Virus record (IMG/VR): IMGVR_UViG_3300029705_000009
Length of the DNA: 64,000 nt
Source of the DNA: a virus
Lineage: Duplodnaviria > Caudoviricetes
Strand: one strand, 5' to 3'
In this document: positions 19,824 through 64,000 of the stretch, in pieces
How positions within the stretch are numbered: position 1 is the stretch's first letter
Layout of the letters: the number at the start of each line of letters is the position of its first letter
Made by a program: the position numbers and the translations under genes
The notes under the pieces: generated by a model
The model's input: only the letters and a program-made list of their open reading frames with translations
What the model was told of the DNA's origin: nothing
Database searches by the model: none

Positions 19824-20774
19824 TCACTTATGCCAATAGCGCATTTTGTCGCACTCATGAAAATCCAAAAGCATCTTATATTTTTCTTCGCCAAATACCT
19901 TATTCCATTTTTTATGAACTTTTTGATTGTTCCAGTTAAAAGGCATCATATGATAATTTATCAGAAATAGTATTTCTAAATATTCTTCATCAGAATAATC
20001 TCTATGCAATTTAGCACTTTCCAAATTGGACAATAAATAATATGCTCCTACGTTCTCGTGCTGATAATAATGTGCTATGCCACTTTCGTCAAAAGTCTGT
20101 GTAAACAATTTACCAACATCATGAAGTGATGCTCCGGTTCCATATATAAGCCAAGCATAGTTGCTCATCGCTAAAAATTTCTTTTTAACAAAATCACTAT
20201 GTTCATATAAATCCATATTATGATGTGGATTTTTCTGATCAAACCCTTTCATCTGATTATAACAATCAGTTAAGAAATTGGAATCAACTGTTTCATTTCT
20301 AAACTTATGAATGATAATTTCTTTAAAGCCTTCTTCGTAGAATGGAACCTGGAACTTTCCACGCTGCTTATAAATAACTTCATCTGGAACAGAATGCATT
20401 CTTTCTGAAGATATGTTGTCCAGAAGACAATCTTCTATCTTCTTTGGCACAACATAAGCAATGGGATAACATTCTATTCTTCTAATGGCTTCAAAAATAG
20501 CTGTTCTGGATTTAATTGTAATATTAGTGGCATCTGCGATTACATTATGACCGGAACGAAGATTTTCTCTTATTCTTTTATGAAAAATCTTAAATACTTC
20601 TTCATTCTTACTCTGGTCCGCAACACCACCTTCACATATTTCTCCTCTAATGACGTCCGAAGAAACTATAATGCAATCTTCTGCTTCTGCTATTCGTTTT
20701 GCTATGGTTGATTTACCGGAAGCTGATAAACCAACCATAATATAAAGTTTTGGGATTTTAATGTTAGATTTCAT
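19824..20774 (-). CDS. Polynucleotide kinase (AAA_33) fused to an HD domain
   Basis: GLSASGKST, SSD.IR, DATN; C-terminal HH...H, LHDVGK, HENVGA, YHM. Confidence 0.85.
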   Translation of the reverse strand: MKSNIKIPKLYIMVGLSASGKSTIAKRIAEAEDCIIVSSDVIRGEICEGGVADQSKNEEVFKIFHKRIRENLRSGHNVIADATNITIKSRTAIFEAIRRIECYPIAYVVPKKIEDCLLDNISSERMHSVPDEVIYKQRGKFQVPFYEEGFKEIIIHKFRNETVDSNFLTDCYNQMKGFDQKNPHHNMDLYEHSDFVKKKFLAMSNYAWLIYGTGASLHDVGKLFTQTFDESGIAHYYQHENVGAYYLLSNLESAKLHRDYSDEEYLEILFLINYHMMPFNWNNQKVHKKWNKVFGEEKYKMLLDFHECDKMRYWHK

Positions 20775-21792
20775 CTTTTACCACTCTTTCGTTTACGCTT
20801 GCCACAAATTCGTTGATTGCCTTGTAATTAGGGTTGTCTGGCAGAGATGTATTGGTTTTTGCATAATCTAGCCTGTTTTCATAATAATCTACCATTTCAA
20901 AAAATTCTGGTATTGGCTGCTCATTTTTATCTAAGTATTTGCCATTACGAATATCCATTAATAAATCATGCTCTTTCGAACGATATGTAATAATTTCTTC
21001 ATTTTCCAAGATGTCTAAGCACATCATATATAAACGAATCAAATGCATCATATGTTTCGATATTTTTCCATGACTTAAGGCATTCTCATTACGTTTGCCA
21101 ATCTTGCCGTAAGCTTTTACAGTGTTCTGCAGTTCACTCCACATAGAAGCATAATCACGAAGAGGATAATGATGCAAGCTTACATCCATAAAAATCTCTG
21201 TATCATAACCTGGTTGAACTGCTTTATCAATATAAAGATTTATGCTATCTTCAGGAAATGAAGAATATTTCTTATTAAAGTCATACTTCATAAACTCTAA
21301 TGTTTTAAGAATGTGTTGCTCCAGTCCAGTTTGTGATAACTGATGTGCAGCTTTTTGATTTAAACGATAAAGCTGTTGGTTCGCATATCCTCCAAATGAG
21401 TGAACTGCTTTCTTTGATAAGAAAAGCTTTCTATGTTTAATCAATTCTTCCCCAATAGGATGTAAATACAAATAGTGCTCTGGCTTTAAACCAAGCATCT
21501 CAATTGTGTTAGGATTTGTATTTGAGAGCAATGCAACAATTTTATTAAATGAATAAATTGTCGTATCAGTCTGTTCATTAACAAATTGCTCAAAGTTCTG
21601 GTTTGTAAGAATATCTTCTTTACGATTCAAGGCTATGCCTCTACAATCCAAATCCGACTCTGGAGTATTTGTTCCATAAGCATGGGATCCTCCAAGTCCA
21701 AGGAGAATAATGTTATGTCCTAGATGCTCATTGGTTCTTAAAAAGTCATATTCAGTTGAGTTAAGTGTTGCTTTAATCTGTTCAATGTTCAT
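20764..21792 (-). CDS. Pol beta-family nucleotidyltransferase (RlaP/YcgL-like)
   Basis: GGSHAYGTNTPESDLDCRG, NPNTIEML, KHMMHLIRL. Confidence 0.85.
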   Translation of the reverse strand: MNIEQIKATLNSTEYDFLRTNEHLGHNIILLGLGGSHAYGTNTPESDLDCRGIALNRKEDILTNQNFEQFVNEQTDTTIYSFNKIVALLSNTNPNTIEMLGLKPEHYLYLHPIGEELIKHRKLFLSKKAVHSFGGYANQQLYRLNQKAAHQLSQTGLEQHILKTLEFMKYDFNKKYSSFPEDSINLYIDKAVQPGYDTEIFMDVSLHHYPLRDYASMWSELQNTVKAYGKIGKRNENALSHGKISKHMMHLIRLYMMCLDILENEEIITYRSKEHDLLMDIRNGKYLDKNEQPIPEFFEMVDYYENRLDYAKTNTSLPDNPNYKAINEFVASVNERVVKDEI

Positions 21793-22764
21793 ATCTGTTA
21801 CCTATATAATTTATTTACTTTTCATATTCGCTCAAATCAATTTCTTCCTGTTCAATCACCTTAAACCAATTTGATTTCAGTCCAATCATCTTGTGAAATT
21901 CTACTATCAAAGCAGACAATTCATCCTCTAGCCACTTAGTCTGCTCTTCTGTTACGCCTTCATATATGTAATTCTCGCAGCCAGTTTCGTCACAATATTG
22001 CTCATCTAAGTCCATAAGAATAGATTCAGAATCAACACCTGTCGGCAACGGAACAATTTCACATCTGCCTACATGAATTGTATCGATTTTAAGATTAAAC
22101 ACATCTATAGTGTTTAAAGCATCTTCTATGGCTTCTTCTTTTGATTCAAACATGCCATGTGACCATTCTTCGGTATCTGTTTCATTCCAAGACCAAATTT
22201 GATCATCTTTATAATATTCACAATCTGATTTATGATTTCCTCTTGTGAATCCGTTCATAAATGCATGATAACAAGGAAAATTACATTCCACATAGTCAGG
22301 ACATTCAAAGCAGCATACTCCATCATCTCTAACTGTACATCTAAAGTTTTTACATGCCATTTTATCACCTACAATCTAAATCCAAACATAGAAAACTCTT
22401 TTGGTTACATTTTCCCATGGCTCAAATTGTTCCGTTTCATAGTTACGCATAGGTATAAATTTGGGGAATATAATGTTGCTTAAAATTTGATAATCAATAT
22501 CTTTATCTATGATTGCACCATTATGTCTTTGCCCTCTGCAATTTTCACTTGCTATTGAAATTCTAATTCTACTCCCATTTTTTAATTCAACAAAAGATTC
22601 CCACCGATTTGTAACTATCATAATTGCATCATTTTTAAGTATAAGCTCAAAGTCTTTAATATAATCAATTACTCTTTTTATTTTCTTGCCGTTTTTAACA
22701 TATACTCCGCATTTATATCCTGGATTTGTTACACAAAAACTAAGTTGTTTTTCTAAAGCTTCTT

Positions 22765-23520
22765 TTAATTCCATGGCTTGTCCTCAGTTTTATAAGGAAA
22801 ACAAGGCATTTGCTGCATCTTGAATAAATTCCTATTATGCAAATATTCAATACGCTCCTGATGATCAACGTTTTCGATAACACCTTCACGAATGTATTTA
22901 TCTAATTCGGCATATGTAAATCCAAGATTGTCCTCGTCTGTTTTACCACAAAGACCATCGGAAGGAACTTTTTCAATTAGTTCTACCGGCAATCCTAATT
23001 CATAACCAATAGCCTTAACTTCTGTTTTAGTAAGATTTGCAAGAGGACTTACATCGCCAGCACTATCTCCGTAGCGTGTACTATATCCTACCCAATCTTC
23101 GGAAAGGTTACATGTGTTAAGAACTCTACCATTCACGCTCTGAGATACTGCGTACAAAGTAGACATACGAATACGAGGAGGTAAATTAGTTTTGGTTTGT
23201 TCTGATATTTCAAGACCAGATCTTAACAAAATAAGATTCAGCAAATCATCTACTACTTTTCCAATGTCAATTACATAATTCTTAATATCCAAAAACTCAC
23301 ATAATTTATGAGAGTACTCAATATCACTTTGAGTATTTTGTGGCATTAACACACCAATAACTCTTTCTTTCCCCAGTGCCTCTACACAAAGCGCAGCCAC
23401 TACAGAAGAATCAGTACCACCGGAAATACCAATTATAGCATTACAGTCCTGGCCATTTTCAGAGAACCAATCTCTAAGCCACTGAACTATTTCATTTTTT
23501 ACTTTCTTTGCATCAAACAT
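22765..23520 (-). CDS. nadE: NH3-dependent NAD+ synthetase
   Basis: GISGGTDSS, RIRMSTLY, GYSTRYGD, KVPSDGL, TDEDNLG; no glutaminase domain. Confidence 0.95.
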   Translation of the reverse strand: MFDAKKVKNEIVQWLRDWFSENGQDCNAIIGISGGTDSSVVAALCVEALGKERVIGVLMPQNTQSDIEYSHKLCEFLDIKNYVIDIGKVVDDLLNLILLRSGLEISEQTKTNLPPRIRMSTLYAVSQSVNGRVLNTCNLSEDWVGYSTRYGDSAGDVSPLANLTKTEVKAIGYELGLPVELIEKVPSDGLCGKTDEDNLGFTYAELDKYIREGVIENVDHQERIEYLHNRNLFKMQQMPCFPYKTEDKPWN

Positions 23521-24076
23521 ATTGTTTCTCCTTATAAAATTTCACTTCCATTAACTCGGCACGAATTTCATCATATAGCTTGTGCAATCTAGGATTAACA
23601 CATTCCATCCACTTTTCTCTTTCGTCATCAGCCATATATTTTCGCATCATAGTTGCAGAAATAGGTAGCTGTGTTCTATTGATGATTAATTCAGCAGTGT
23701 TCTTTAAGTCTTCTTTCTGAAACCATGCACTTCTACTCTCGTCGTTACCATAAATCATAATATCAGGATTTTTATGGATATATTTTTTTGCATTTTCTAA
23801 TAAATACTTACCCCATTCAGGACTGATATCATCTTCACTACTCAAATCTGCCAAACCATAAATCATGATATTAGGAGAATTACCATATACTTCTCTTAAC
23901 ATTCTAATGCGAGTTTCGATGTTTAGTGGATTTCTCTCCGTTCCAGACAACTGAGAACTTCCTACTAAAATAAGTAATCTATCGCATAACAATAATCCTG
24001 TATCAATTAACTTTTCATGTCCTTTATGCAATGTCTGGAATCTTCCGCATACAAGACCTACATCATATGGTTTCAA
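23513..24076 (-). CDS. NMN/NaMN adenylyltransferase (NadM-like)
   Basis: GRFQTLHKGH (HxGH), GSSQ...RNP, ISAT; lies between pncB and nadE. Confidence 0.85.
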   Translation of the reverse strand: MKPYDVGLVCGRFQTLHKGHEKLIDTGLLLCDRLLILVGSSQLSGTERNPLNIETRIRMLREVYGNSPNIMIYGLADLSSEDDISPEWGKYLLENAKKYIHKNPDIMIYGNDESRSAWFQKEDLKNTAELIINRTQLPISATMMRKYMADDEREKWMECVNPRLHKLYDEIRAELMEVKFYKEKQYV

Positions 24077-25275
24077 TTATTCATCCTCCAATTAATACAT
24101 CTCTGCAAATAATCAACATACTCAGGATTCTTGCACATACCTTTTCCTGGTGTATCAGATATTTTCGCTACGTCTTGACCATTGCATTTTGTTACTTTCA
24201 TAACAATATTGAGAGGTGAAACACATGTATCATTAGATAGATATGTACCAATTCCAAATGCAACTTTTGCTCTACCATTAAAATATCTGAACAACTCATC
24301 AGCCTTTTTAAAATCAAGACTATCGCTAAAAAGTAGTGTTTTACTCATAGGGTTAATTCCAAGAGATTTATAATGTTCAATCATCTTGTCTCCCCACTCC
24401 TTAGGATCGCCACTGTCATGACGTACACCGCTAAACAATGTTGCATATGTAAGTTGAAAATCTTTTAAAAAACAATCCGTTGTGATGGTATCAGTTAATG
24501 CAGTTCCGTTTAATATACCGTATTCTTTTACCCACGCTTCTAATGAATACCAATTTGAATACGCCGGATTATGTTTATGATTACCTTGTCCAACGCACAT
24601 AATCCATTCGTGAGCCATCGTTCCTACAGGAGTAATGCCGTACTTCTTTGCAAGGTATACATTAGATGTGCCAACAAATGTAGATGCACAGTATTTTGCT
24701 TCGGAAAGTCTCTTTACGGCAAGTTCCTGAGCCTCAGAAGAAAGACGGCGTCTAAGTCCAAACTCACTAAATGCAGGCAAATACATTTTCCCACTTTCAA
24801 TCCAGCCTATTTTTTCTTCAAGTTTCTCCTTAAAACTGTCAATGAGTCTGTTATAATCGTGTGCCATACGGAAATATACTTCATTCACAATGGCAAGTAC
24901 CGGAATTTCATACATAGATGTATTTAGCCAAGTACCTTCAGTCTCAATAGATAATCCACAATTCCCATCTGTTGTAATGGTAAAATCTTCAAATCTAGGA
25001 TGCCACAATCTCAAAAAATCAACATAACTTTCCTTAATCCATTTAATAGATTTCAAATATTCAAGTTCGTCTTCTGCAAAACGAATCTTACAATACTCGG
25101 CAATTTGTTCTTTAATTTCTTCTACCATCTCATTTGTAAAGTGAACATCTTTATTTCTACATTTAAATGTCCAAGTGGTTTTGTAATCAGAGAACTGGTG
25201 AAAAATAGCTTGTCCCATACTAAATTTATACATATCATTTGAAAGCAAGCTTGTGACAATCTGTGTTAAGTTCAT
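24073..25275 (-). CDS. pncB: Nicotinate phosphoribosyltransferase
   Basis: DMYKFSM, EFGLRRR, GTSNV, GTMAHEW, RHDSGDP, FSDSLD, FGIGT, KISDTPGK. Confidence 0.95.
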   Translation of the reverse strand: MNLTQIVTSLLSNDMYKFSMGQAIFHQFSDYKTTWTFKCRNKDVHFTNEMVEEIKEQIAEYCKIRFAEDELEYLKSIKWIKESYVDFLRLWHPRFEDFTITTDGNCGLSIETEGTWLNTSMYEIPVLAIVNEVYFRMAHDYNRLIDSFKEKLEEKIGWIESGKMYLPAFSEFGLRRRLSSEAQELAVKRLSEAKYCASTFVGTSNVYLAKKYGITPVGTMAHEWIMCVGQGNHKHNPAYSNWYSLEAWVKEYGILNGTALTDTITTDCFLKDFQLTYATLFSGVRHDSGDPKEWGDKMIEHYKSLGINPMSKTLLFSDSLDFKKADELFRYFNGRAKVAFGIGTYLSNDTCVSPLNIVMKVTKCNGQDVAKISDTPGKGMCKNPEYVDYLQRCINWRMNN

Positions 25276-25291
25276 AACTAAATTTCTCCTT

Positions 25292-25813
25292 TTATTTATT
25301 TCTCAGCAATTCAAATGCTGCTGTCTCTCCGTGAGACATACACATTTCAAAAAACTCATCTAAAAATGCCAAATCGTTTTCATGCATCGCAATAGGTTTT
25401 GCTTTCTTGTTTTGCCACCATTCATATTCTTTTTCAATAGTAAATGTTTTACCGTAATAAGCACGACCAGCACCTATATAGTCGCAAATCATCTCTTTTT
25501 TATACTTCATAGGTATTTCAAGAGCAATTCCTCCCTGGTCAAAGCAATCCTGCCAGTACTCATAGTGGTGTTTATTGCGCCCCTTGTGGTGCATCCATGC
25601 TTTAGAGTATCCATTAACTTTCTTAGCAACATCAATTGGACTACTTGTTCCCTGGTAGTATTTCACACTCTCAAAGAATTCTACTGGAGAGAATTTAGAC
25701 ATATCATGAAGTAATCCTTGTAAAGGGATACGAGCTTTTACACAGTATCGAAATACCCAATACTTATGTTTGCATACTTTCTTAAAATGTTTGAAAAAAT
25801 TAACTATATACAT
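25292..25813 (-). CDS. HD-like metal-binding protein (DUF5662-like)
   Basis: HK..V, LLHDMSKF, HHKGRNKHHYEYW, EMICD. Confidence 0.7.
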   Translation of the reverse strand: MYIVNFFKHFKKVCKHKYWVFRYCVKARIPLQGLLHDMSKFSPVEFFESVKYYQGTSSPIDVAKKVNGYSKAWMHHKGRNKHHYEYWQDCFDQGGIALEIPMKYKKEMICDYIGAGRAYYGKTFTIEKEYEWWQNKKAKPIAMHENDLAFLDEFFEMCMSHGETAAFELLRNK

Positions 25814-25823
25814 TCCTTGATCC

Positions 25824-26402
25824 TTACTCGTTAATCACATTAATCTGACAACTTTTCATTACTTCAAGTGCTGCCCTATGCTTCTCAGGTGTGACGCCGG
25901 CACAACAACTTGCGTCTACTGTAATAACTTTATCTGGCATTTCCTGTCTTGCCATAAGCACATTAGAAATCACACAGATGTCGGTACAAAGGCCAGCGAA
26001 CTCAATTTCGTCAATTTCATCCTTATGCTTTACAAAGAAATCTCTTAAATCATCAGAACCAAATGTATTTTTATAAATTCGACTATGCTTAATTGTCTTA
26101 GAGGAATATGTCAAAGCACCTTCCCTATTATCAACTACACTTGAAATCTCCTTATTAATGCTCCAACCAGGAGTATTCTCAATACAATGTTTAACTGGCA
26201 GCATCTTGCCTTCAAATGTGTCAAGATAATCATCATAGTGTGTGTCCTTAGTAAATAGAACTAATGTGTCTGTCATATCAATATTATTCAGTTTTTCTAC
26301 TACTCTAGGTACAATTGCCTGAGCCTCCGGACTTCCCAAACTTCCATCAATAAAATCATTTTGCATATCAACAATAACAAGTGTATTCATTATTTTATTC
26401 AC
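25824..26402 (-). CDS. pncA: Nicotinamidase (isochorismatase family)
   Basis: VDMQNDF, DTH, HC, K.TFGS, GLCTDICV catalytic set; adjacent to pncB. Confidence 0.88.
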   Translation of the reverse strand: MNKIMNTLVIVDMQNDFIDGSLGSPEAQAIVPRVVEKLNNIDMTDTLVLFTKDTHYDDYLDTFEGKMLPVKHCIENTPGWSINKEISSVVDNREGALTYSSKTIKHSRIYKNTFGSDDLRDFFVKHKDEIDEIEFAGLCTDICVISNVLMARQEMPDKVITVDASCCAGVTPEKHRAALEVMKSCQINVINE

Positions 26403-26422
26403 TCTCCAATACTATTAATAAA

Positions 26423-27016
26423 TTACTTTCTTAACCATTCCTTAAACTTGCTATAAGTCCCAAATTTTTCTTTCCAATTTGATACAATTTCAGTCGGATT
26501 GAGATCAAACTTCTTACAAACATATGTAATATATTCATTCTCATACAGTTTTTTTCTTCTCTTATTTAATGCCTTAACTTCTGCAAATACTTCAGCTCTT
26601 GAAACACCGTATTCTTTTAATAAATAAGCACTAAGATCATACTCTGAGTATTCAATAAACTGGCATATCGGACATACGCATTCAGGAACTCCGTAATATC
26701 CACTCTCACTACAGAAGTTATCCCATAAATCATCTTCTTCCATAATAAGCAATTCATCCTCTGTATAGTCTCTACTATCTCTGAGTTCTGAATCCCATGC
26801 GTCCTTATTCCACTCGTTCTCTAAAATCATTTTAATTAAATCTTTCTTTGATGGTCTTTCTAACGCTTCATCACAACAGAAGGTATGTCCATTTACACAC
26901 TCCATCATTTCTGCTTCAGACAAACACATGTCCCATCCGCTTTCAGTACGTCCGCAAATCTCGCAAACATAACTTGAACTACTACTATTTGTTACAAAAT
27001 CCTTTCTAAACTTCAT
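26423..27016 (-). CDS. TNSSSSS-leader protein 6 (Cys-rich)
   Basis: MKFRKDFVTNSSSSSY N-terminus; CxxC motifs. Confidence 0.85.
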   Translation of the reverse strand: MKFRKDFVTNSSSSSYVCEICGRTESGWDMCLSEAEMMECVNGHTFCCDEALERPSKKDLIKMILENEWNKDAWDSELRDSRDYTEDELLIMEEDDLWDNFCSESGYYGVPECVCPICQFIEYSEYDLSAYLLKEYGVSRAEVFAEVKALNKRRKKLYENEYITYVCKKFDLNPTEIVSNWKEKFGTYSKFKEWLRK

Positions 27017-27020
27017 TTAA

Positions 27021-27422
27021 TCATCCATTCCTTCCTTCACCTTCTGCAACTTCAATATTATCAAAACCATTTTCTACTGTAACATCATCAATTGCATCGT
27101 TCATACTAAAGTCATAATAAAAAACATCTTCTTCTGTTTCATCATCCCAATCAGCATCCAGCCAGTCTTCAATAATGATATATTTATTATTAGGATGTGC
27201 TTCTAGGATTTTATCAACTCCCCAAATTGTTGCTCCAGCCCAATCTGCTCCTAGATCACCCCAACGCATTTCTTTTTTTACGCCATCTTTATCAAATACA
27301 TTTGAATTTAGATTGTGCTTTTCTATAATTTTATTGGCTTTTTCTTCATCAACAATTCTTGCAAAGCAAATAATATATGACGAACTACTACTATTTGTAA
27401 CAAAGTCTGTTCTTATCTTCAT
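27021..27422 (-). CDS. TNSSSSS-leader protein 5
   Basis: MKIRTDFVTNSSSSSY. Confidence 0.85.
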   Translation of the reverse strand: MKIRTDFVTNSSSSSYIICFARIVDEEKANKIIEKHNLNSNVFDKDGVKKEMRWGDLGADWAGATIWGVDKILEAHPNNKYIIIEDWLDADWDDETEEDVFYYDFSMNDAIDDVTVENGFDNIEVAEGEGRNG

Positions 27423-27854
27423 TTAATCGTCCTCCAAGATAACGAAATTTTCTTTGTCTTCTGCTAATTCACGAAGCATATTTACACAATATGTGTCATT
27501 ATAATCAACAGACTTTCTCAATATATTAAATCCTTTCTCTAAATGCTCGATTGATCTATTGTATATGTTTGTCAAATAACTATCATCTTTAAGAATACTT
27601 TCTACAGTCTGATATCTACCCCAACCATAATATGATACAAAATCCTCATCATATTCTTCTTTAGTTCTTGATACCTCACCTGCCGTTGTATCGTATTCTC
27701 CCTCTGTAAACAGAGCCTTTTCAATCAACTTCCCATAATTCTTTAAGAACGGATACTTTACTAAAGTCTCTTCGTCAATTTCTGGAAGAGTTTTATATGC
27801 AATAATATAGCTGCTACTACTCGAATTTGTTACATAGTCACTTCTAATCTTCAT
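27423..27854 (-). CDS. TNSSSSS-leader protein 4
   Basis: MKIRSDYVTNSSSSSY. Confidence 0.85.
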   Translation of the reverse strand: MKIRSDYVTNSSSSSYIIAYKTLPEIDEETLVKYPFLKNYGKLIEKALFTEGEYDTTAGEVSRTKEEYDEDFVSYYGWGRYQTVESILKDDSYLTNIYNRSIEHLEKGFNILRKSVDYNDTYCVNMLRELAEDKENFVILEDD

Positions 27855-27865
27855 CTCAAGAACTC

Positions 27866-28177
27866 CTAATAATGGTAATCAAATTTGGGTGATATATCGT
27901 TTCTGTCAAAATCCCAGAGAATATCATCAATCCTATCGTCATACATTGCTTCATCTCTTCTTACCCAAATGTGCATTTCGTCATCGTCTTTGTTGTAATC
28001 AACCAAATAATAAACATCATCCACATCACAAGATACACACATGTTTAATAGCTCATCATGATCAACGTGTGTAAAATTATTCTCAATATACTCTGCATTT
28101 TCCTTACCAATATCTTTTTTACAAACAACAAAGCTACTACTTGAACTATTGGTTACATAATCGCTTCTAATCTTCAT
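27866..28177 (-). CDS. TNSSSSS-leader protein 3
   Basis: MKIRSDYVTNSSSSSF. Confidence 0.85.
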   Translation of the reverse strand: MKIRSDYVTNSSSSSFVVCKKDIGKENAEYIENNFTHVDHDELLNMCVSCDVDDVYYLVDYNKDDDEMHIWVRRDEAMYDDRIDDILWDFDRNDISPKFDYHY

Positions 28178-28511
28178 TTAATAATTTCCTCCAATCTGAA
28201 CCGTTATAAATGGATTTATCATTTTCTTCTTGTAGACTGAATGGATATTCGCTCCAACTTATATTTCTGCTATTTACTTCAATCTTTTCCAAGAAAGTAT
28301 CCATATCAAAATTATCCATCCATGTATATCCGGTTATATAGTTTTCATTCTCGTCAATATCCCAGGTTTCATCACAGCAATCAAGTCCTAATTTTTCTCC
28401 TAACTTCCCATGTTCTCTAATAGCTAATAATTGGTCATAGTCAAGATATTTCTTAGAAATAATAAAACTACTACTACTCGAATTTGTTACATAATCAGAA
28501 CGTATTTTCAT
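28167..28511 (-). CDS. TNSSSSS-leader protein 2 (start reassigned to ATG 28511)
   Basis: MKIRSDYVTNSSSSSF begins at 28511, right after the upstream stop codon. Confidence 0.85.
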   Translation of the reverse strand: MKIRSDYVTNSSSSSFIISKKYLDYDQLLAIREHGKLGEKLGLDCCDETWDIDENENYITGYTWMDNFDMDTFLEKIEVNSRNISWSEYPFSLQEENDKSIYNGSDWRKLLNED

Positions 28512-28512
28512 T

Positions 28513-28851
28513 TTATCCCACCTTAAAATTTTCTGTAACAATGTTATATCCACAGTCATACATAAAAGCTCCAAATTCATCATCTTCACTAGAATATTCA
28601 ACTGCTGATACAGTCCAATCTCCGAGTTGCATATCTTTTGGCTTTCTAAATAACTTCCTGGATAAATCTTCTATGAATATTTCCACTGATTCATCGTCAG
28701 AATTTAAATCAAACATGTCCAAGTTATATTCAATATCTTTTTTATATTCTTTTAATTTATTTCTTATTTCATCAATAGTACAATTCTCTCTTTTGGCGAT
28801 GATAAAACTGCTACTAGATGAATTAGTCACAAAATCTTTCCTTACTTTCAT
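28513..28851 (-). CDS. TNSSSSS-leader protein 1
   Basis: MKVRKDFVTNSSSSSF; overlaps the end of the radical SAM gene. Confidence 0.85.
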   Translation of the reverse strand: MKVRKDFVTNSSSSSFIIAKRENCTIDEIRNKLKEYKKDIEYNLDMFDLNSDDESVEIFIEDLSRKLFRKPKDMQLGDWTVSAVEYSSEDDEFGAFMYDCGYNIVTENFKVG

Positions 28852-29923
28852 ATAAGTCCTTCTCCTCTTTGTTGCATAAAACGATCTGTCTCCGAATTGG
28901 GCAACCGCCTCTACATTCTAACTGTCTACTACAACCTTTACATGAGTTTCTAAAATGATCGCGAAAATCCTCAAATTGTTTACTATTCCACGCATTTTGT
29001 ACTGTATCATTTGAAATGTCATATGCCCATCTCATATCCTGATTATCAAAGCTACAAGGTAACATCTTCATATCAGAAGTAATATATGCGGACCATCTTC
29101 CACCCTCACATGTATCAAAACTATCCTCGTTGATATTAGAAGTTATATTAATAAGCGCCGGAACTGTACAAGAATCGAAACCAATTTTAAAATCAAATTG
29201 GCAAGTGTCAATAATATTAAAGAATTCTTTTACTCTATCATCATTGATGTCCAATACATTATTTTCCTGACCCAAACCAACAGGTTTATGTAATAAGAAA
29301 ATTATTGCGTTAATGCCTTTGGGGAAATCGTTGCTTCTTAATCTTGTAATAGCCTCGTCAATGGAATTATTTCCTAATACATAGTGGATATTTGTCTTAA
29401 CTCCTGCATCTAACAACATCTGAATTGCTCTATATGTGTGTTCCTGGCGATACCAACTGATTGCAACTGCTCCGCATAATTCCTTACAAAGTGCTACAAT
29501 CTCATCTGTGAAACCTAATCCGGAAGATGTGAAATTTGGCACAATGCCATTTTCTCTACAGTATCTAAGGATTTTTTCAAAATCTTCATGTTGGTCTACA
29601 TCACCTCTGCCACCCAATGCGAACTGAAATGTCTTGCCTTTACATTCATCTACAATTCTCTTGAAGTTTTCAAAAGACATATTAGGAAATTTAGTCTTCA
29701 ATCCATTCTGATAACACTGAACGCCTGATTTAATACACAATCCACTAGATCCATGAACGCAATGCCCCATAATTCCAATATCAAGTAATTCAGGATAACT
29801 AGTCATAAAGGGATCTACACCTGTGTCTTTTCCGTTCTCAATAACTCCACTTCTCATATAGAACCCTGTATTGGGATTAAACACAGATACAAATTTGTTT
29901 TTCTTATCAATTTTCTTAATCAT
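28823..29923 (-). CDS. Radical SAM enzyme with SPASM domain
   Basis: Cys motif C.HG..GLC......CYQ (expanded), GG.GD; C-terminal CEGG...PCSF...C..C....CRGGCP. Confidence 0.9.
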   Translation of the reverse strand: MIKKIDKKNKFVSVFNPNTGFYMRSGVIENGKDTGVDPFMTSYPELLDIGIMGHCVHGSSGLCIKSGVQCYQNGLKTKFPNMSFENFKRIVDECKGKTFQFALGGRGDVDQHEDFEKILRYCRENGIVPNFTSSGLGFTDEIVALCKELCGAVAISWYRQEHTYRAIQMLLDAGVKTNIHYVLGNNSIDEAITRLRSNDFPKGINAIIFLLHKPVGLGQENNVLDINDDRVKEFFNIIDTCQFDFKIGFDSCTVPALINITSNINEDSFDTCEGGRWSAYITSDMKMLPCSFDNQDMRWAYDISNDTVQNAWNSKQFEDFRDHFRNSCKGCSRQLECRGGCPIRRQIVLCNKEEKDLYESKERFCD

Positions 29924-30605
29924 TTTCTTTCTCCAGCTTATTCCAATTATACCAACCGTAAATACAGTTAATAGTCCATGCTATGTACATTGCAACCATC
30001 GACCAATTGCCAGCTACAAACCACATCTTTATACAAATAACATCTATTACAAGCCACCAAATCCACTGTTCTCTATATCTCTTAACCATTAAAATCTGAG
30101 CAAAAATTGCTAGTACATTAGTAGCAGCATCTGTATATGCTTGATGACTTCCGATTGTAGTTAGCCAATATCCCATGCCCAAAGTACAAATTCCTGTGCC
30201 AACAATTGAAGCAATCCACTTTAAAGGCGTAAACTTCAAAGCATCTACATGTGCTGATCCATCTTCATCTACGGTTGAATTGTTTTTCCATACAAAGATT
30301 CCCCAAATCATAGTCACAAGGTAGAATATGTTCTCCAATACTTCACCATAAAAACAATTCTGCCAAGACAAAATCAAATAACTTATGGTTTGTATAAAAC
30401 CAATAAAGTAAAATGAAATCTTACCTTTCGCACACAATACAACAGAAATAACTCCGCTAATTCCTGCAATAATTCCTAGTAACGAATCTGGTGCAATACA
30501 GAAGACAACTATCTGTACCAATAACATTGTAATCATAAACATTCGATCAAAAATCGAATAACCATTCAGAAACTCTCTATTTAGCATATTTGTAATTTTA
30601 TTCAC
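29916..30605 (-). CDS. pnuC: Nicotinamide riboside transporter
   Basis: Multi-pass membrane protein; DA...LAIFAQILM.KRYREQWIWW..D; adjacent to nadR. Confidence 0.88.
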   Translation of the reverse strand: MNKITNMLNREFLNGYSIFDRMFMITMLLVQIVVFCIAPDSLLGIIAGISGVISVVLCAKGKISFYFIGFIQTISYLILSWQNCFYGEVLENIFYLVTMIWGIFVWKNNSTVDEDGSAHVDALKFTPLKWIASIVGTGICTLGMGYWLTTIGSHQAYTDAATNVLAIFAQILMVKRYREQWIWWLVIDVICIKMWFVAGNWSMVAMYIAWTINCIYGWYNWNKLEKEND

Positions 30606-31737
30606 CTATTAGTACCTCTTTTTCCACATATTCTTTTACTGCAATAAAGTTTTCATAATAATTTCCATCGAGAATAGTAACCTTACCCCAATCACCAACT
30701 TCAATGAGACTCTGTTTCAGAATACCAAACAACTCTTGTCTTTCTTTCATACCGGAATGAGCCATAAATCTCGAATGATCATCAACAAAAATACCATGAG
30801 GAACAACAAGAAAAATCTTATCCCATCTACTCTTCTTTGCATATTCGTAAGCTACAGGTTTGATTTTTTCGTTGTACTCTTCTTCTTTCAAAATGCAGCT
30901 AGGATCTTTTGAATAATATTGAGAATACATATTAGTAACTAAACTATCCGTATCAGCAAAGAATATTCCATGGTTGCCTGGCGAGTTAATACACTCTTTA
31001 TTGTGATTATACTGACCTTCAAGAAACGCAAGAAAGTCTGCACAATCAAGTTCCCAGTCGCTAACGCAACTTTCAACCATGTAATCTCTAGCCCACTCAT
31101 GACTGTGCGGAGCGTTGAAATACTTACCTAAGTCTGTAACCAATGTAGACTTTCCCTCACTTGCAGTTCCGGTAATAAGAATGTTGGTGCTGAAAATTCT
31201 CTTGAAAGGAAGAGTAATTTTATCCCAATGCTTAACAGGATTCTGTCTAATCATTGTTGCGGATATAGGATTGTCAGATGTTCTATCAACAAGTACTGCT
31301 TTTTCGTGCCACATGTTGATGAGATCGTCATAATATGTCTGGTCTCCTACATACCAGGTTCTATCCATCGTTCCCATTGTAGGTACTTCCACTTTTGGAT
31401 ATTCAACGGCCTTTTTGTATATTTTCTCAAACTCGTTCATCCAACCAATCCAACCATTAGGATATCTATCAAGTCCAATTTCTGTATCATTAATCGCATA
31501 AACAGCAACTAAATCGTCATCTGCAAAAAACTCACGAACATAACGATATCTCTTTCTGTGTGGCATTAACGGCTCACCTTTGTCTCCGTCATATCCACAA
31601 ACAATTACTAATGCTCCTCCAGAGTTTTCTTTCTTTGCTCTCATTATCAAATCCAAATGACCCTGATGTAATGGTGCGAATGAGCCGAATACAATTCCAA
31701 TATTACCTTTTAATGGCTTTTGATAGGCGTGTAACAT
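30598..31737 (-). CDS. nadR: NadR-type bifunctional NMN adenylyltransferase / ribosylnicotinamide kinase (no HTH)
   Basis: FGSFAPLHQGH, ISATMIR, GTASEGKST, EWARDY, DTD. Confidence 0.88.
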   Translation of the reverse strand: MLHAYQKPLKGNIGIVFGSFAPLHQGHLDLIMRAKKENSGGALVIVCGYDGDKGEPLMPHRKRYRYVREFFADDDLVAVYAINDTEIGLDRYPNGWIGWMNEFEKIYKKAVEYPKVEVPTMGTMDRTWYVGDQTYYDDLINMWHEKAVLVDRTSDNPISATMIRQNPVKHWDKITLPFKRIFSTNILITGTASEGKSTLVTDLGKYFNAPHSHEWARDYMVESCVSDWELDCADFLAFLEGQYNHNKECINSPGNHGIFFADTDSLVTNMYSQYYSKDPSCILKEEEYNEKIKPVAYEYAKKSRWDKIFLVVPHGIFVDDHSRFMAHSGMKERQELFGILKQSLIEVGDWGKVTILDGNYYENFIAVKEYVEKEVLIGE

Positions 31738-31823
31738 TTTGCTTCTCCTTTTTCCGTCTTTCGCATATAATTTTATTTACTTATTTTTAAAATAAAGGAA
31801 CAGATATATTTCTGTTCCCTTAT

Positions 31824-31852
31824 ACATTACCATCAAATGAATGCTTTGTCAA
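31824..31852 (-). promoter_or_regulatory. SigA-type promoter upstream of the NAD/radical SAM operon
   Basis: TTGACA-17 nt-TAATGT with TG extension. Confidence 0.6.
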
Positions 31853-31868
31853 TACTTGGTATTTAATT

Positions 31869-32558
31869 TTATTCATCTATATTGTATATTTCTTCAACTT
31901 CCAAAATATAATTGTCTTTTATTACTGTTGAAATCGTATTACAACAGCCATCTTCTCTAATTGTATACTCTCTCATATTGCATCTGCGCTCTTGAATTTT
32001 TCCAGCCTCATAGTCTTTACGGATTGCTTTTGCATATTCATTGCGTTGATATCTTAAGGCATAACACTCTTTATCATCTGTCCTTTCCAATATCATGCAG
32101 TCTTTTCCTACTGTGGTAATAGCATTGCAATAATCGCAAGAATTAATTTCTAGTTGTTGTTCGATTTTACCGTCTTCATTATATCTACCACGCATAGCAC
32201 AACAAACCGGAAATTCCTCTATTACTTTTAATCCAGATCTTTCACTACGAAGTGTTGGACATTCCTCATATAATCTCAGTTCACGATTTGCATACAAATC
32301 ATCTAGTATATAAGCTTCTTTATCTTCATCTTTAACAACATATAAATATGAATTTCCACCCATATTTCCTACAGGTTGAGCATTTAATGCCATTGCAATA
32401 TGGTCACTTGAATATACCCTGTTTCCTTGTCTGAATTGTTTGCCAAAATTTATTTCTCCAAAACCAGTAAGTAATTGTGGTTTAAAAGTGTCTTCTCCAG
32501 AAGCAGATATTACTCCACTTCTGGTTTCGTAAAATTTACACATTTTTCGTCCGTACAA
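31869..32558 (-). CDS. Orphan methyltransferase variable-region (TRD-like) repeat protein
   Basis: QGNRVYS...AL.A, PTLRSER, AMRGR, NAITTV.KD, NTISTV.KDN repeats; overlaps the end of the MTase gene. Confidence 0.55.
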   Translation of the reverse strand: MYGRKMCKFYETRSGVISASGEDTFKPQLLTGFGEINFGKQFRQGNRVYSSDHIAMALNAQPVGNMGGNSYLYVVKDEDKEAYILDDLYANRELRLYEECPTLRSERSGLKVIEEFPVCCAMRGRYNEDGKIEQQLEINSCDYCNAITTVGKDCMILERTDDKECYALRYQRNEYAKAIRKDYEAGKIQERRCNMREYTIREDGCCNTISTVIKDNYILEVEEIYNIDE

Positions 32559-34051
32559 ACATAAGATTCATCATACTGTGCTTTGTAAAGATGCTCAAAC
32601 AGCAATTTAATGCAGTCCGTCACAATTGAATTTCCTGCCGCACGATAGCCTGCAGTATTAGAGCATCCTACTGCTACACATTTATCCCAATCTTCAAATT
32701 CAAACCCCATCAATTTGAAGCATTCTCTCGGAGTCAATTTACGAATGCGATAAATAGTTTCATTGTATTCTACACCATTTTTTGTTTCCGAGAGTTCATC
32801 GTAAATATTATTTTGATTACTTTCGTCTACAATACAAGGTTGTCTTAATCCGCCGGCCATTGTGTCTAAAGTTGGTGCTAAACCATTTGTGTTCCAAACA
32901 GAACCAGCTTGATGTTTTGTATCGCCATCAAACATGCCTCCAATTCTTTCCGCGCTATCAAGCGTTTCAGACTCTACAACTGCAACCATATCTTGATTGC
33001 CAAATCCTTTCCAATCTCTTGCCATTAATGTATTTGCGGTATCAATTGTTCTAGAATATTCTGTAGCTTGATTTTTTACCAATATAGATTGACGTTCTAG
33101 CTTTAATTGTCCTTTGTCAATTAATTGCTTAATAAGATTTGTAGCACGTTCGGTATTTATGTAGTATTTTTCGTCCACATTCTTTTCTAGGACATCTTTA
33201 AGGCGTATACCAGTATCGAATGGGATGGGAAATGTAAATTTTCCGGCATCAATATCTTTGCGAACACTAAAAGCGAAAACGCGTTCTCTATTTTGGGGTA
33301 CGCCACACGTCTTACTATTGAGTACAGACCAAGGAGTGTTATAACCCAAATACTCCAATCTCTTAATCCAAGCATCAAAATCTGGTTTAAACTGCTTTCC
33401 TACAAGATTCTTTACATTTTCTAAGCAAAGATATTTAGGTGCAGTATTTGTTTCAATTGCTTTGATAAGCAATCTTTCTACTTCAAGCAACAATCCCGAT
33501 CTTGTTCCTTTAATATCATCAGAACCACAATGAGGACAAATATATCTATGTTCTACATCATAATCCATAGGATTGTATTTCTGTCCACAAGCATTACATG
33601 TTGCTGCCAAGCCATCTTGTTTACCGGCCAAACTGAAGCATTGACATGGCGAGCTATAAAACCAACAATCTGCTTCCGGCAACTGCTCAATTCTACTAAT
33701 GTCTCCAAGATTATTCTGAAGAGTCATTGCAAGCCAATACTTCTCAATATCTTTAGTCTTCTTTTTTAAAAGCTTATCCCAATCATACATTTTATCTTTG
33801 TCGAAATCCATACCAATATTGCGAGCTTTTAACTCTTCTACCATCTCTTCTCTATTGGGATAGTTTTCATAATTTTCAACCATCTCATTTGTTAATCCAT
33901 GATGAATTGCCGCGTATTCTACTACAGCTTCTTTATCAATGTCTGATGTTGCAACTACTTCTAAATCATATAATTCAGTATTATCTATTCCTCTTTTTTG
34001 AGCACCAATACCTGAAAATAGCTCAATCATTGTTAGTTTATGTTTAGTCAT
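32510..34051 (-). CDS. C5 DNA cytosine methyltransferase
   Basis: ELFSGIGA (I), SPCQCFS (IV), ENVKNL (VI), PQNRERVF (VIII), RKLTPRE (IX), AGNSIV (X). Confidence 0.95.
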   Translation of the reverse strand: MTKHKLTMIELFSGIGAQKRGIDNTELYDLEVVATSDIDKEAVVEYAAIHHGLTNEMVENYENYPNREEMVEELKARNIGMDFDKDKMYDWDKLLKKKTKDIEKYWLAMTLQNNLGDISRIEQLPEADCWFYSSPCQCFSLAGKQDGLAATCNACGQKYNPMDYDVEHRYICPHCGSDDIKGTRSGLLLEVERLLIKAIETNTAPKYLCLENVKNLVGKQFKPDFDAWIKRLEYLGYNTPWSVLNSKTCGVPQNRERVFAFSVRKDIDAGKFTFPIPFDTGIRLKDVLEKNVDEKYYINTERATNLIKQLIDKGQLKLERQSILVKNQATEYSRTIDTANTLMARDWKGFGNQDMVAVVESETLDSAERIGGMFDGDTKHQAGSVWNTNGLAPTLDTMAGGLRQPCIVDESNQNNIYDELSETKNGVEYNETIYRIRKLTPRECFKLMGFEFEDWDKCVAVGCSNTAGYRAAGNSIVTDCIKLLFEHLYKAQYDESYVCTDEKCVNFTKPEVE

Positions 34052-34102
34052 TTATATCTCTCCATTTAATTTTATTTACTTATCATCAAAAAAAATAACT
34101 AA

Positions 34103-34261
34103 TTACATATACGTACACGCATAGTAGATTACATAGATCCATCCAAGTAATCCATGTAAAATTGCCCAACCGATACTCTCCCACGCTGTCCACGACATAC
34201 ATATAGCCAATGCAGAACCAATCCCAATGCCAGAAGTTACATAAGTCTTTTCTCTACTCAT
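34103..34261 (-). CDS. Small membrane protein (52 aa, below the ORF-track cutoff)
   Basis: MSREKTYVTSGIGIGSALAIYMSW...HGLLGWIYVIYY. Confidence 0.6.
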   Translation of the reverse strand: MSREKTYVTSGIGIGSALAICMSWTAWESIGWAILHGLLGWIYVIYYACTYM

Positions 34262-35035: not shown

Positions 35036-35068
35036 TTTTATTCCTCTTGTAATTTTATTTAGTTACGT

Positions 35069-35461: not shown

Positions 35462-35475
35462 ATTTCTCCTTTAAT

Positions 35476-50580: not shown

Positions 50581-50591
50581 TTGTTCCTCCT

Positions 50592-62821: not shown

Positions 62822-64000
62822 TTAATCTCCTATCATTTTCAAAAAGTCCTGCTCAGATATGATTTTAACACCTAGGCCTTTTGCCTTAGAATTTTTTGAT
62901 GAATTACTATTAACATCGTTATTCACCAGGTATGAAGTTTTAGCACTTACAGATCCACTTACCTTACCTCCAAGGTTCAAAATCTTTTCTGTAAGTTCTT
63001 CTCGATTCTTAAAATGTTCCAAAGAACCTGTAATAACAAATGTTTTCCCAGCCAATATACTCGTTTGCATATTATTTTGCTTACTTATTCCGGTTTCAAA
63101 ATTAAATTCCCTTTTCAGTTCCAAGAACTCAATCCAATGAGCATCACGCCAACTTATTAACGACTTGTACATTGTTTCACCAAACCCCTCAATTTCTAAA
63201 AACTTTCTTGCAGCTCCGAAAGATATGATTTGACAGAATGTATCAATATTTCCCTTACAAAGTTTAGAAATATCCTTACTTGCTGTTCTTCCAATTAATG
63301 GAATGCTCTGGGCATACAAGAATCTCTCAAGATTAGTATTTTTACTCTTAGCAATGTTCTCAAGCAACTTTAATACGCTCTTCTCTCCGAAGCCAGGTTC
63401 CTTTGTCCATTCGTTTTTATATATATCTAAACTGTAAATATCCTTTAATGATTTAATCCAACCTTTTGATAATAAAAATTCTAATGTTGCAGATGACATA
63501 TCCTCAATATTCAAGGCCTGCTTGCTACAAGCGTGTTCTAACTTAGATAACAGCTTAGCTTGGCAATCAGGATTAATACAATGAAGTGTTTTGCTTCCGT
63601 TTTCGTTGTGGATTTCTGTTGGCTCACCACAGCAAGGACATTTATCTGGATATGTCCAGGTATTACTTCTGGTTAAATTGTCATGAACCTTGGGAATTAC
63701 CATATTGGCACGGTACACAGAAATAGTATCGCCAATACCCAATTCTAAATTTTCAATATAAGAAATATTATGTAACGTTGCTTTGGTTGTTAATGCTCCA
63801 TCCAAATCAACCGGCTCAAATATCGCTACTGGATTAATTAACCCAGTTCGAGTAGTATTCCACTCAATGTTTGTAAGAACAGTTTCGCTTGTATCGTCTT
63901 TCCATTTCCTCGCCAACATATTAAGAGGATGATGCTCCGTACTACCAAGAGATTTTCCATATTCATAGGAATTATATTTATATATAGTTCCATCCACAGG
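62822..64000 (-). CDS. ligA: NAD-dependent DNA ligase (5' part outside the window)
   Basis: RTGLINPVA, ATLHN, RANMVIP, C4 zinc finger, HhH (GFGEKS), BRCT domain (GKTFVITGSL...SVSAKT.YLV). Confidence 0.93.
   Translation of the reverse strand, partial: PVDGTIYKYNSYEYGKSLGSTEHHPLNMLARKWKDDTSETVLTNIEWNTTRTGLINPVAIFEPVDLDGALTTKATLHNISYIENLELGIGDTISVYRANMVIPKVHDNLTRSNTWTYPDKCPCCGEPTEIHNENGSKTLHCINPDCQAKLLSKLEHACSKQALNIEDMSSATLEFLLSKGWIKSLKDIYSLDIYKNEWTKEPGFGEKSVLKLLENIAKSKNTNLERFLYAQSIPLIGRTASKDISKLCKGNIDTFCQIISFGAARKFLEIEGFGETMYKSLISWRDAHWIEFLELKREFNFETGISKQNNMQTSILAGKTFVITGSLEHFKNREELTEKILNLGGKVSGSVSAKTSYLVNNDVNSNSSKNSKAKGLGVKIISEQDFLKMIGD

Follow-up and report, generated by a model that had tools for sequence, protein, structure and literature searches.

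A putative phage-borne copy of a host-type deamidating NAD+ salvage operon with an added DUF5662 gene

Background

NAD+ depletion is among the commonest strategies that bacteria use against phages. Three phage pathways that rebuild NAD+ (NARP1, NARP2, and NARP3) have been proven by experiment and show that rebuilding NAD pays off for phages. NARP1 consists of Adps and Namat, with a Macro-domain extension in which Adpp is added (bioRxiv 10.64898/2026.01.28.702374). NARP2, the type of Vibrio phage KVP40, pairs Nampt with Nmnat (bioRxiv 10.1101/2024.02.11.579819), and NARP3 pairs PnuC with NadR (Bas30_87/86; Sci Adv 2026, PMC13464706). Clustered pncB-nadD-nadE genes (e.g., Kuafu_71) and phage pncA were described in 2024 for "NAD-jumbo phages," with a proposed counter-defence role (Microbiome, PMC11662467). 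The NARP2 preprint makes no mention of PncA, PncB, NadE, nicotinic acid, nicotinamidase, or "deamid," and in the literature that we searched no experiments on any phage PncA/PncB/NadE set were found.

We analyzed a 64,000-nucleotide stretch of DNA from a Caudoviricetes virus (IMG/VR record IMGVR_UViG_3300029705_000009), hereafter the window, for which a preliminary description had proposed a phage-encoded deamidating NAD+ salvage route.

Results and Discussion

Gene content of the cassette

Five co-directional ORFs fill positions 22765-26402 of the minus strand exactly (Table 1), and all are intact, so the NAD salvage gene cluster of the preliminary description is confirmed at this position. 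The genes overlap by 8 and 4 nt and are then spaced by gaps of 16, 10, and 20 nt, a tight arrangement that suggests co-expression. The set of PncA, PncB, adenylyltransferase, and NadE is supported as a predicted complete route on paper from nicotinamide through nicotinate and NaMN to NAD+. The earlier statement that these genes suffice for the conversion stands to that extent, with the adenylylation of NaMN as its conjectural step.

Table 1. Coordinates of the cassette genes and of other NAD-related genes in the window.
Feature	Coordinates	Strand	Details
NadE, single-domain ammonia-type NAD synthetase (predicted)	22765..23520	(-)	251 aa; PF02540 187 bits, TIGR00552 189 bits
NMNAT-type (NadM/NadR/archaeal) nucleotide adenylyltransferase	23513..24076	(-)	187 aa, TTG start; PF01467
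PncB, nicotinate phosphoribosyltransferase	24073..25275	(-)	400 aa; TIGR01514 425 bits, NF003704 488 bits
DUF5662 protein, HD-superfamily-like putative metal-dependent phosphohydrolase	25292..25813	(-)	173 aa; PF18907 108 bits
PncA-type nicotinamidase	25824..26402	(-)	192 aa, GTG start or ATG at codon 5; PF00857 77 bits
PnuC nicotinamide riboside transporter	29916..30605	(-)	229 aa; PF04973 151 bits; outside cassette proper
NadR-like NMNAT + ribosylnicotinamide kinase, no HTH	30598..31737	(-)	379 aa; PF01467 + AAA_28; TIGR01526 196 bits
NAD-dependent DNA ligase, C-terminal part	62822..64000	(-)	391 residues; DNA_ligase_OB, HhH, BRCT domains
FolD	11769-12596

The cassette PncA, an isochorismatase-fold protein, is 45-50% identical to PncA of Lachnospiraceae and other bacteria, where its homologues sit in NrtR-PncA-PncB operons. 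Among solved structures, P. horikoshii PncA matches it best (1ILW, E 7.5e-16). The PncA-specific NCBIfam model scores below its cut-off (33 vs. 174 bits). The Cys-Asp-Lys triad of nicotinamidases (D12/K111/C143) and their Asp/His/His metal site (D53/H55/H72) are present and invariant in 121 distinct homologues. PncB passes the curated cut-offs of 270 bits for TIGR01514 and 379 bits for NF003704 and is a PncB equivalog with NAPRTase_N, not NAMPT_N. It is 74-80% identical to Lachnospiraceae PncB and 75-81% identical to PncB of 142 IMG/VR contigs, and the phage and bacterial sequences are interleaved on the tree.

The adenylyltransferase keeps both nucleotidyltransferase signatures (HKGH at residues 17-20 and ISATMMR at 139-145). 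Its best NCBIfam models are all NMN adenylyltransferases (NadM-Nudix, archaeal, and NadR; 54-56 bits), the solved structure closest to it is that of the NMNAT domain in the NARP3 enzyme Bas30_86 (9X6F, E 7.8e-11), and the NadD models do no better than E 7e-5 (TIGR00482 scores 22.9 bits). We thus rejected a NadD assignment; because the enzyme is not a NadD, the conversion of NaMN to NaAD is one that we infer rather than read off the family, and the use of NMN by the nearest characterized relatives counts against it. NadD occupies the same slot in related cassettes. One orthologue (74% identical) lies inside a NARP1-like operon and 25 others in NadE-NMNAT pairs without PncB, so its occurrence does not depend on this cassette. 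Archaeal and Acinetobacter NadM are bifunctional NMN/NaMN adenylyltransferases that are paired with ordinary NAD synthetases (PMC3376133).

NadE scores far above the TIGR00552 cut-off of 64 bits and carries the SGGxDS ATP-pyrophosphatase loop of NAD synthetases as SGGTDS at residues 33-38. A domain search of its 251 residues found no glutaminase domain, and as a single-domain protein it is taken to be ammonia-type. Among solved structures it is closest to P. horikoshii NadE (2E18), followed by the NadE homologue of Francisella (3FIU, E 2e-35 over the full length). In most relatives the orthologous NadE (59-68% identical) adjoins NadD, which argues that the cassette NadE is an NaAD amidase.

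The DUF5662 protein

The HD-like character proposed earlier for the DUF5662 product is supported by its motif and suggested by its predicted fold, short of proof. The H...HD...D metal-binding motif of the HD superfamily is present, and residues H16, H36-D37, H76, H82-H83, E107, and D111 do not vary in members as distant as 26% identity. When the AF2 model (pLDDT 94.7) was searched with VIA-align, the top seven matches were all HD-domain proteins with Z of 7.4-5.1 (HD-GYP 9RBZ at 7.4, PgpH, PH0347), values that are common for helical models; Foldseek with the same model gave no match at E <= 1e-3. DUF5662 was found in none of 80 bacterial pncB loci. A separate phage lineage has NARP1-like operons in which it lies directly upstream of Namat, an arrangement for which we found no published description. 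Across separate lineages it stands beside PncB, Namat, and Nampt-like (NAPRTase-family) genes; most family members occur in unrelated contexts. From this gene neighborhood, a role as accessory enzyme of the cassette is plausible.

Phage context, conservation, and origin

The window is phage DNA, with genes for DNA polymerase, primase-helicase, NrdD, and RNA ligase all on one strand, and same-strand phage genes flank the cassette on both sides. A second candidate NAD route lies 3.5 kb upstream at 29916-31737, where the PnuC and NadR-like genes overlap by 8 nt. The NadR-like protein matches L. lactis NadR (6GYE, E 3.5e-58) and Bas30_86 (9X6F, E 5e-21), and the architecture of PnuC followed by an HTH-less NMNAT-RNK enzyme marks the pair as putatively NARP3-like. 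The NAD-dependent ligase noted earlier is also present, with only its C-terminal 391 residues inside the window and its adenylation domain beyond the edge; full-length LigA is encoded in four of five related phage records. FolD is encoded in the window as well.

A survey of synteny across phages, which had been suggested as a check, found the cassette conserved: the order PncA-DUF5662-PncB-NadD-NadE occurs in 52 of the 80 best IMG/VR PncB loci and in 71 of 83 IMG/VR DUF5662 loci, the longest record being 206 kb. CheckV rates four sampled cassette-bearing records (156-206 kb) as 95-100% complete. The GC3 of the cassette is 0.25-0.32, compared with 0.27-0.31 for phage core genes, and its best DNA identity to a bacterial locus is 75%, for pncB only. 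The bacterial relatives are NrtR-PncA-PncB(-NadE) operons, so the cassette is of a known working operon type. Sequence comparison places its descent in a Lachnospiraceae operon of this kind, with the regulator lost and DUF5662 added.

Comparison with described systems

The chemistry had been called unlike that of NARP1 and NARP2, and this distinction holds, also with respect to NARP3 (PMC13464706). As a new NAD reconstitution pathway the cassette is new only in part, since phage pncB-nadD-nadE clusters and the idea of counter-defence were published in 2024 (PMC11662467). The "NAD-jumbo phages" of that study are likewise large gut phages in which pncB, an adenylyltransferase gene, and nadE are clustered and NAD-consuming enzymes are co-encoded. 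Their definition (>200 kb, with the genes of one route clustered) also covers the phage studied here, the genome size being taken from a 275,330-bp contig that encodes an identical DUF5662 protein. Unlike those clusters, the window cassette includes PncA, has DUF5662 between PncA and PncB, carries an NMNAT-type enzyme in place of NadD, and has the PnuC-NadR pair nearby. New points are the phage-only, putatively HD-type enzyme, which also occurs in other phage NAD-rebuilding operons, and the swapped adenylyltransferase; the origin from a Lachnospiraceae host operon and the loss of NrtR, worked out here, also go beyond the earlier study.

NrtR-regulated pncA-pncB(-nadE) operons of Lachnospiraceae and other bacteria have the same enzymes and gene order, whereas the phage copy has lost the Nudix-winged-helix regulator and gained DUF5662, shows the base composition of phage DNA, and is located among phage replication genes. 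NARP2 (bioRxiv 10.1101/2024.02.11.579819) also starts from nicotinamide and PRPP, ends with an adenylyltransferase of the same superfamily, and rebuilds NAD+. The cassette differs in its deamidation by PncA, its nicotinate-specific phosphoribosyltransferase, and its final ATP-dependent amidation, with four enzymes instead of two and no Nampt; we rejected an assignment to NARP2 because the phosphoribosyltransferase is a PncB equivalog with the NAPRTase_N domain.

The pair upstream resembles NARP3 in architecture but is distant from Bas30_86 and nearer to Lactococcus NadR, and it comes from a gut phage of Firmicutes type rather than an enterobacterial phage. The cassette itself is a route separate from NARP3; the closest match of its adenylyltransferase is the NMNAT domain of Bas30_86. 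NARP1 was rejected because neither Adps nor Namat is among the ORFs of 19824-36048, both occurring in related loci only; the cassette makes no use of ADP-ribose. Related phage lineages combine the same parts with NARP1 and its Macro-domain extension, in the order PncA, Adps-like, NMNAT (the 74% orthologue), Namat, Macro, NadE at locus L246 and DUF5662, Namat, (Macro), Adps-like at loci L275-L296 and L377.

Proposed function and alternatives

We consider it probable that the cassette is a phage-borne, regulator-less copy of a host-type deamidating (Preiss-Handler plus nicotinamidase) NAD salvage operon that, with the PnuC-NadR route, keeps or rebuilds NAD+ during infection. This reading is based on gene identities, catalytic motifs, conservation, origin, and phage context, and the NAD consumers and second NAD route of the same phage count in its favor; use of NaMN by the adenylyltransferase, the order of the steps, expression, and any anti-defence effect are what we infer from it. 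PncA would deamidate nicotinamide to nicotinate, PncB would join nicotinate and PRPP into NaMN, the NMNAT-type enzyme would adenylylate NaMN to NaAD, and the ammonia-dependent NadE would amidate NaAD to NAD+. The cassette would be expressed within a long co-directional early/middle transcription unit that includes the nicotinamide-riboside route, and in an infected gut host of Lachnospiraceae type the two routes together may maintain NAD+ or restore it, to the benefit of LigA and other phage enzymes that use NAD. Defences that deplete NAD set nicotinamide free, and these would probably be blunted as well. DUF5662 may be an HD-type phosphohydrolase that the phage has added and that serves in some accessory function. 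It counts against this reading that the host probably encodes such a route already, so that the gain from a phage copy would be quantitative or regulatory, and that, by textbook stoichiometry, the deamidating route spends PRPP and some three ATP on each NAD+, which exceeds the cost of NARP2.

It is hardly credible that the block is bacterial DNA, captured recently or present as contamination, that has no function in the phage. The closeness of PncB to Lachnospiraceae and its interleaved tree could be read so, but bacterial DNA identity peaks at 75% in pncB, GC3 agrees with phage core genes, the ORFs are intact with invariant active sites, phage genes lie on both flanks, the phage copy has shed NrtR and acquired DUF5662 relative to bacteria, and dozens of near-complete phage records keep the cassette; the decay of captured host DNA once named as grounds for dismissal is contradicted. 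A different order of steps, as in Francisella, strikes us as rather unlikely. NadE would then be an NMN synthetase (NaMN to NMN), and the NMNAT-type and upstream NadR-like enzymes would convert NMN to NAD+, so that the deamidating and nicotinamide-riboside branches converge on NMN. The NMNAT-type adenylyltransferase, with its closest solved relative in the NMN-using Bas30_86 domain, and the short-type NadE, with 3FIU as second-best solved relative, are in line with this order. The Francisella NadE homologue was described as an NMN synthetase accompanying the replacement of NadD by NadM (PMC3376133), and here too an NMNAT-type enzyme replaces NadD; the two-gene NadE-NMNAT module recurs on 25 phage contigs, and 14 contigs have PncB-NadE modules without an adenylyltransferase. 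However, most NadE orthologues adjoin NadD, where an NaAD amidase is needed, and the equally similar short NadE of M. jannaschii is without appreciable NMN synthetase activity (PMC3376133).

What the NAD+ is for divides the remaining readings. The cassette may have an anti-defence function, and a plain role in NAD supply fits the data equally well. We lean against, while taking seriously, the view that it is an ordinary auxiliary metabolic module providing NAD+ for phage enzymes (LigA, FolD-type dehydrogenases) after host shut-off, with no specific anti-defence role. LigA and FolD, the housekeeping host operon as source, the many NAD-consuming phage enzymes listed in the "NAD-jumbo phage" study (PMC11662467), and the up-regulation of the host pncA-pncB1-nadE operon by infecting phage PA5oct, which shows a general demand (PMC7318152), all agree with it. 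Yet Nampt and Nmnat were plain NAD+ salvage in the KVP40 work before being named the NARP2 reconstitution pathway, the route starts from exactly what NADases produce (nicotinamide), orthologues of the adenylyltransferase, NadE, and DUF5662 lie inside NARP1-like operons with a Macro domain, and metabolic and anti-defence roles are not exclusive. Unlikely, in our judgment, is the more specific proposal of a fourth, deamidating phage NAD reconstitution pathway that beats NAD-depleting defences, in which DUF5662 (phage-specific, HD-type, shared with NARP1-like operons, and always directly upstream of a NAPRTase-family enzyme) is an unrecognized accessory enzyme of phage NAD rebuilding. Its substrate there might be, for example, a nucleotide made by the defence (a derivative of ADP-ribose, or a cyclic signal) or else a by-product that, unless hydrolyzed, would block the phosphoribosyltransferase step.

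Large gut phages of Clostridia frequently encode the four-enzyme deamidating route, which would extend the list of NAD-rebuilding pathways with one that starts from the NADase product nicotinamide and bypasses Nampt. DUF5662 is a concrete and cheap biochemical target that could reveal a further layer of the NAD arms race. The comparison of loci also illustrates how these phages build NAD modules: a host NrtR-PncA-PncB-NadE operon is copied and its repressor dropped, adenylyltransferases are swapped (NadD, NadM-like, NadR-like), and parts are mixed with NARP1 and NARP3 genes.

Cassette layout and phage setting

Five minus-strand open reading frames (ORFs), called in the window, fill positions 22765-26402 exactly. 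Read in transcription order, the first two junctions leave 10 and 16 nt between genes and the last two are overlaps of 4 and 8 nt; 20 nt separate PncA from the end of the next upstream gene. A single strand carries nearly all sizeable ORFs of the window, among them those for DNA polymerase, primase-helicase, NrdD/NrdG, and RNA ligase, and the window is plainly phage DNA. Because a DUF5662 protein identical to that of the window sits on a 275-kb contig, the phage is probably a jumbo phage. Megablast of the cassette against GenBank phages returned no matches. A scan for sigma-70 promoters and terminators found sites no more often than in shuffled sequences, with no terminators on the minus strand, and was thus uninformative. 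A 132-aa ORF (22376-22774, minus strand) shares 10 nt with the end of nadE; it matched no Pfam family, none of the related cassettes contains a homologue, and it appears specific to this phage.

Genes of the cassette and other window genes discussed in the text
Feature	Position	Strand	Details
PncA (isochorismatase fold)	25824-26402	-	192 aa; PF00857, 77 bits
DUF5662	25292-25813	-	173 aa; PF18907, 108 bits
PncB	24073-25275	-	400 aa; TIGR01514, 425 bits (cut-off 270)
Cytidylyltransferase-like adenylyltransferase	23513-24076	-	187 aa; PF01467
NadE, single-domain	22765-23520	-	251 aa; TIGR00552, 189 bits (cut-off 64)
PnuC	29916-30605	-	3.5 kb upstream of cassette, same strand
HTH-less NadR-like NMNAT-RNK enzyme	30598-31737	-	beside PnuC, upstream of cassette
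FolD (methylene-tetrahydrofolate dehydrogenase/cyclohydrolase, NAD(P)-binding)	11769-12596	-	further nicotinamide-cofactor user
NMT1/THI5-like periplasmic binding domain + OmpA-like C-terminus (phrog_25518)	within 47658-51948	-	537 aa
Binding-protein-dependent permease subunit	51193-51948	-	among transporter-like genes

Other NAD-related genes lie in the window. PnuC and the NadR-like enzyme, separated from the cassette by a radical-SAM cluster, share the architecture demonstrated as NARP3 in 2026 (PMC13464706). The NAD-dependent ligase of the preliminary description is present, as a C-terminal part at the window edge. A FolD also adjoins DUF5662 in locus L165, and a group of transporter-like phage genes occupies 47658-51948 (minus strand).

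Predicted enzymes and reaction order

The closest solved relative of PncA is the Pyrococcus PncA. When 121 distinct homologues from phages and bacteria are aligned, neither its triad (D12, K111, C143) nor its set of nicotinamidase-specific metal ligands (D53, H55, H72) varies; the lysine is K111 by this family alignment, a HMMER pairwise alignment having put it elsewhere. NadE has the SGGTDS loop and lacks a glutaminase domain. The adenylyltransferase bears both signatures, HKGH and ISATMMR, and its top models were NadM-Nudix, archaeal NMNAT, and NadR (54-56 bits), with the NadD model at 23 bits. Among solved structures, it is closest to the NMNAT domain of the NARP3 enzyme Bas30_86. The claim in the preliminary description that four genes are enough to convert nicotinamide to NAD+ would hold on paper in either of two reaction orders, with the amendment that the adenylyltransferase is of NMNAT type and not a NadD.

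In the classical order, nicotinamide would be converted to nicotinate, NaMN, NaAD, and finally NAD+, and NaMN would have to be a substrate of the NMNAT-type enzyme, as it is for NadM of archaea and Acinetobacter, which works beside ordinary NAD synthetases (PMC3376133). Orthologous NadE adjoins NadD in most relatives, which argues for a NaAD amidase and hence for this order. The alternative is the order of Francisella, from NaMN to NMN to NAD+, where the NadE homologue is described as an NMN synthetase that accompanies the replacement of NadD by NadM (PMC3376133); the Francisella protein is the second-best solved relative of the window NadE. We put the chance of this second order at about one in four and prefer the classical one.

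Conservation among phages

The preliminary description called for a survey of synteny across phages, and the cassette indeed recurs. PncB at 75-81% identity to that of the window was found in 142 IMG/VR contigs, and 52 of the best 80 of these loci have the order PncA-DUF5662-PncB-NadD-NadE. Another 14 of the best 80 show the order PncB-NadE-Nudix; a few loci are arranged differently or carry NMNAT-type enzymes. Of 83 loci recovered by a search seeded with DUF5662, 71 contain the PncA-DUF5662-PncB-NadD-NadE cassette. Four of five sampled related records were 95-100% complete by CheckV (156-206 kb), the fifth (138 kb) being estimated at 80%; a full LigA was present in four of the five, and PnuC was absent from all five.

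Since relatives mostly have NadD in this slot, the window cassette is a variant with an NMNAT-type gene there. Orthologues of its adenylyltransferase (73-75% identical) occur in 29 further phage contigs, one adjoining LigA and one in the composite locus L246 described below. In 25 IMG/VR contigs (L247-L274), the gene is part of a two-gene NadE-NMNAT module (NadE 68-69% and NMNAT 73-75% identical to those of the window) that lacks PncA and PncB within 5 kb and would turn NaMN into NAD+ whichever order applies.

The PncB-NadE-Nudix module, with neither adenylyltransferase nor PncA, was seen in 14 phage contigs (L004-L016, L021, L022, L206); one copy binned in an 'Odoribacter' MAG is probably a phage contig inside a bacterial bin. 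Five 'viral' IMG/VR contigs (L023, L027, L031, L064, L076) have a bacterial-type arrangement, Nudix-NrtR_WHD fused to an adenylyltransferase followed by PncA-PncB-NadE, with a 652-aa glutamine-dependent NadE in three, and may represent host sequence or the flanks of prophages. We rejected the PncB of 'Acinetobacter phage MD-2021a' as a phage match: in these 133-kb records (CAKLQH020000008.1, CAKLQF020000012.1), pncB lies amid chromosomal serB, psd, phoBR (phoR among them), and dtd, which suggests that bacterial contigs were deposited under a phage name.

Origin from bacterial operons

The window PncB is 74-80% identical to PncB of Lachnospiraceae and other Clostridia (Butyrivibrio, Roseburia, Lachnospira). 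Bacterial pncB usually lies in an NrtR(Nudix-WHD)-PncA-PncB context, often with NadE next, and DUF5662 was found in none of 80 bacterial pncB loci. Phage and bacterial sequences are intermixed in the PncB phylogeny, where well-supported branches force at least six switches, in a quick FastTree tree whose MAG bins may hold phage contigs. The cassette derives from a host NrtR operon that lost its regulator. It is not a recent capture, because the closest bacterial locus reaches 75% identity at the DNA level in pncB only and because the five genes match the phage core genes in GC3 (0.25-0.32 and 0.27-0.31, respectively). The same values do not fit the decaying host DNA that the preliminary description had considered.

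DUF5662 beside NAD enzymes

DUF5662 is recruited repeatedly beside NAPRTase-family enzymes. Among its 4,709 homologues, with gene context sampled from IMG/VR and GenBank phage loci, it stands directly upstream of Namat in 21 of 22 contigs of another phage lineage and likewise in locus L377. This Namat was recognised by its match to 9W5X/9W5W, structures of Namat (identifiers confirmed in PMC12774641), at 480 bits versus 209 bits to true Nampt, and is followed by an Adps-like PRPS homologue in all 22 loci and by a Macro domain in three. These are NARP1-type operons headed by DUF5662 in gut phages (L275-L296, L377, L083; IMG/VR and GenBank MT836666.1), for example DUF5662-Namat-Macro-PRPS-like (Adps-like) at L293:4971-8302; many of these contigs have an AAA+ ATPase gene or domain ahead of Namat. 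Further contexts are L356, where DUF5662 stands upstream of a Nampt-like gene, and L162, where it adjoins NadR-PnuC. We rejected an NAD-specific role for the family, because in a diverse environmental set 79 of 81 loci lacked any NAD gene within 4 kb and the genes around them were of mixed kinds; its general activity is thus not NAD-specific.

The AF2 model of DUF5662 (pLDDT 94.7) had seven top structural matches, all HD-domain proteins (HD-GYP, PgpH, PH0347), at Z 7.4-5.1, which is modest for helical folds. H16, H36-D37, H76, H82-H83, and D111 are unvaried down to 26% identity, a pattern that presumably fits HD phosphohydrolases with a two-metal site. Sequences of solved structures gave nothing meaningful by single-sequence or profile comparison, Foldseek gave no PDB match at E <= 1e-3, and the ESM Atlas held only unnamed viral clusters. 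IMG/VR scans with two divergent members (L086, L087) found 0 and 1 loci. The idea that DUF5662 and Nudix are alternative ADP-ribose hydrolases, as cassettes tend to carry one or the other, was dropped, because the Nudix protein beside bacterial cassettes is the NrtR regulator and because the kinship among the phage loci is too close for them to be independent.

One locus combines both gene sets. L246:3697-8245 (IMGVR_UViG_3300029305_001452) encodes PncA, a PRPS-like (Adps-like) protein, an NMNAT 74% identical to that of the window, a Namat-like protein (355 bits to 9W5X), a Macro domain, and NadE; genes of the deamidating route are intermingled here with those of an extended NARP1 operon. Immediately upstream is a Thg1-like gene.

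Relation to known phage NAD pathways

The preliminary description proposed a new pathway. Gut 'NAD-jumbo phages' with pncB-nadD-nadE Preiss-Handler clusters, phage pncA, and a proposed counter-defence role are already published (PMC11662467), so the novelty lies in the features of the variant. Our literature searches found no experimental test of the phage route, no 'NARP4', and no mention of DUF5662; the only frequent extra gene named in the NARP1 papers is the Macro domain. Unlike the published clusters, the window cassette has a PncA-DUF5662-PncB core and an NMNAT for NadD. This core, the displacement of NadD by NMNAT, the descent from a host NrtR operon whose regulator was lost, and the tie of DUF5662 to NARP1-like operons go beyond the literature. 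The phage may gain counter-defence from the route, a plain supply of NAD, or both.
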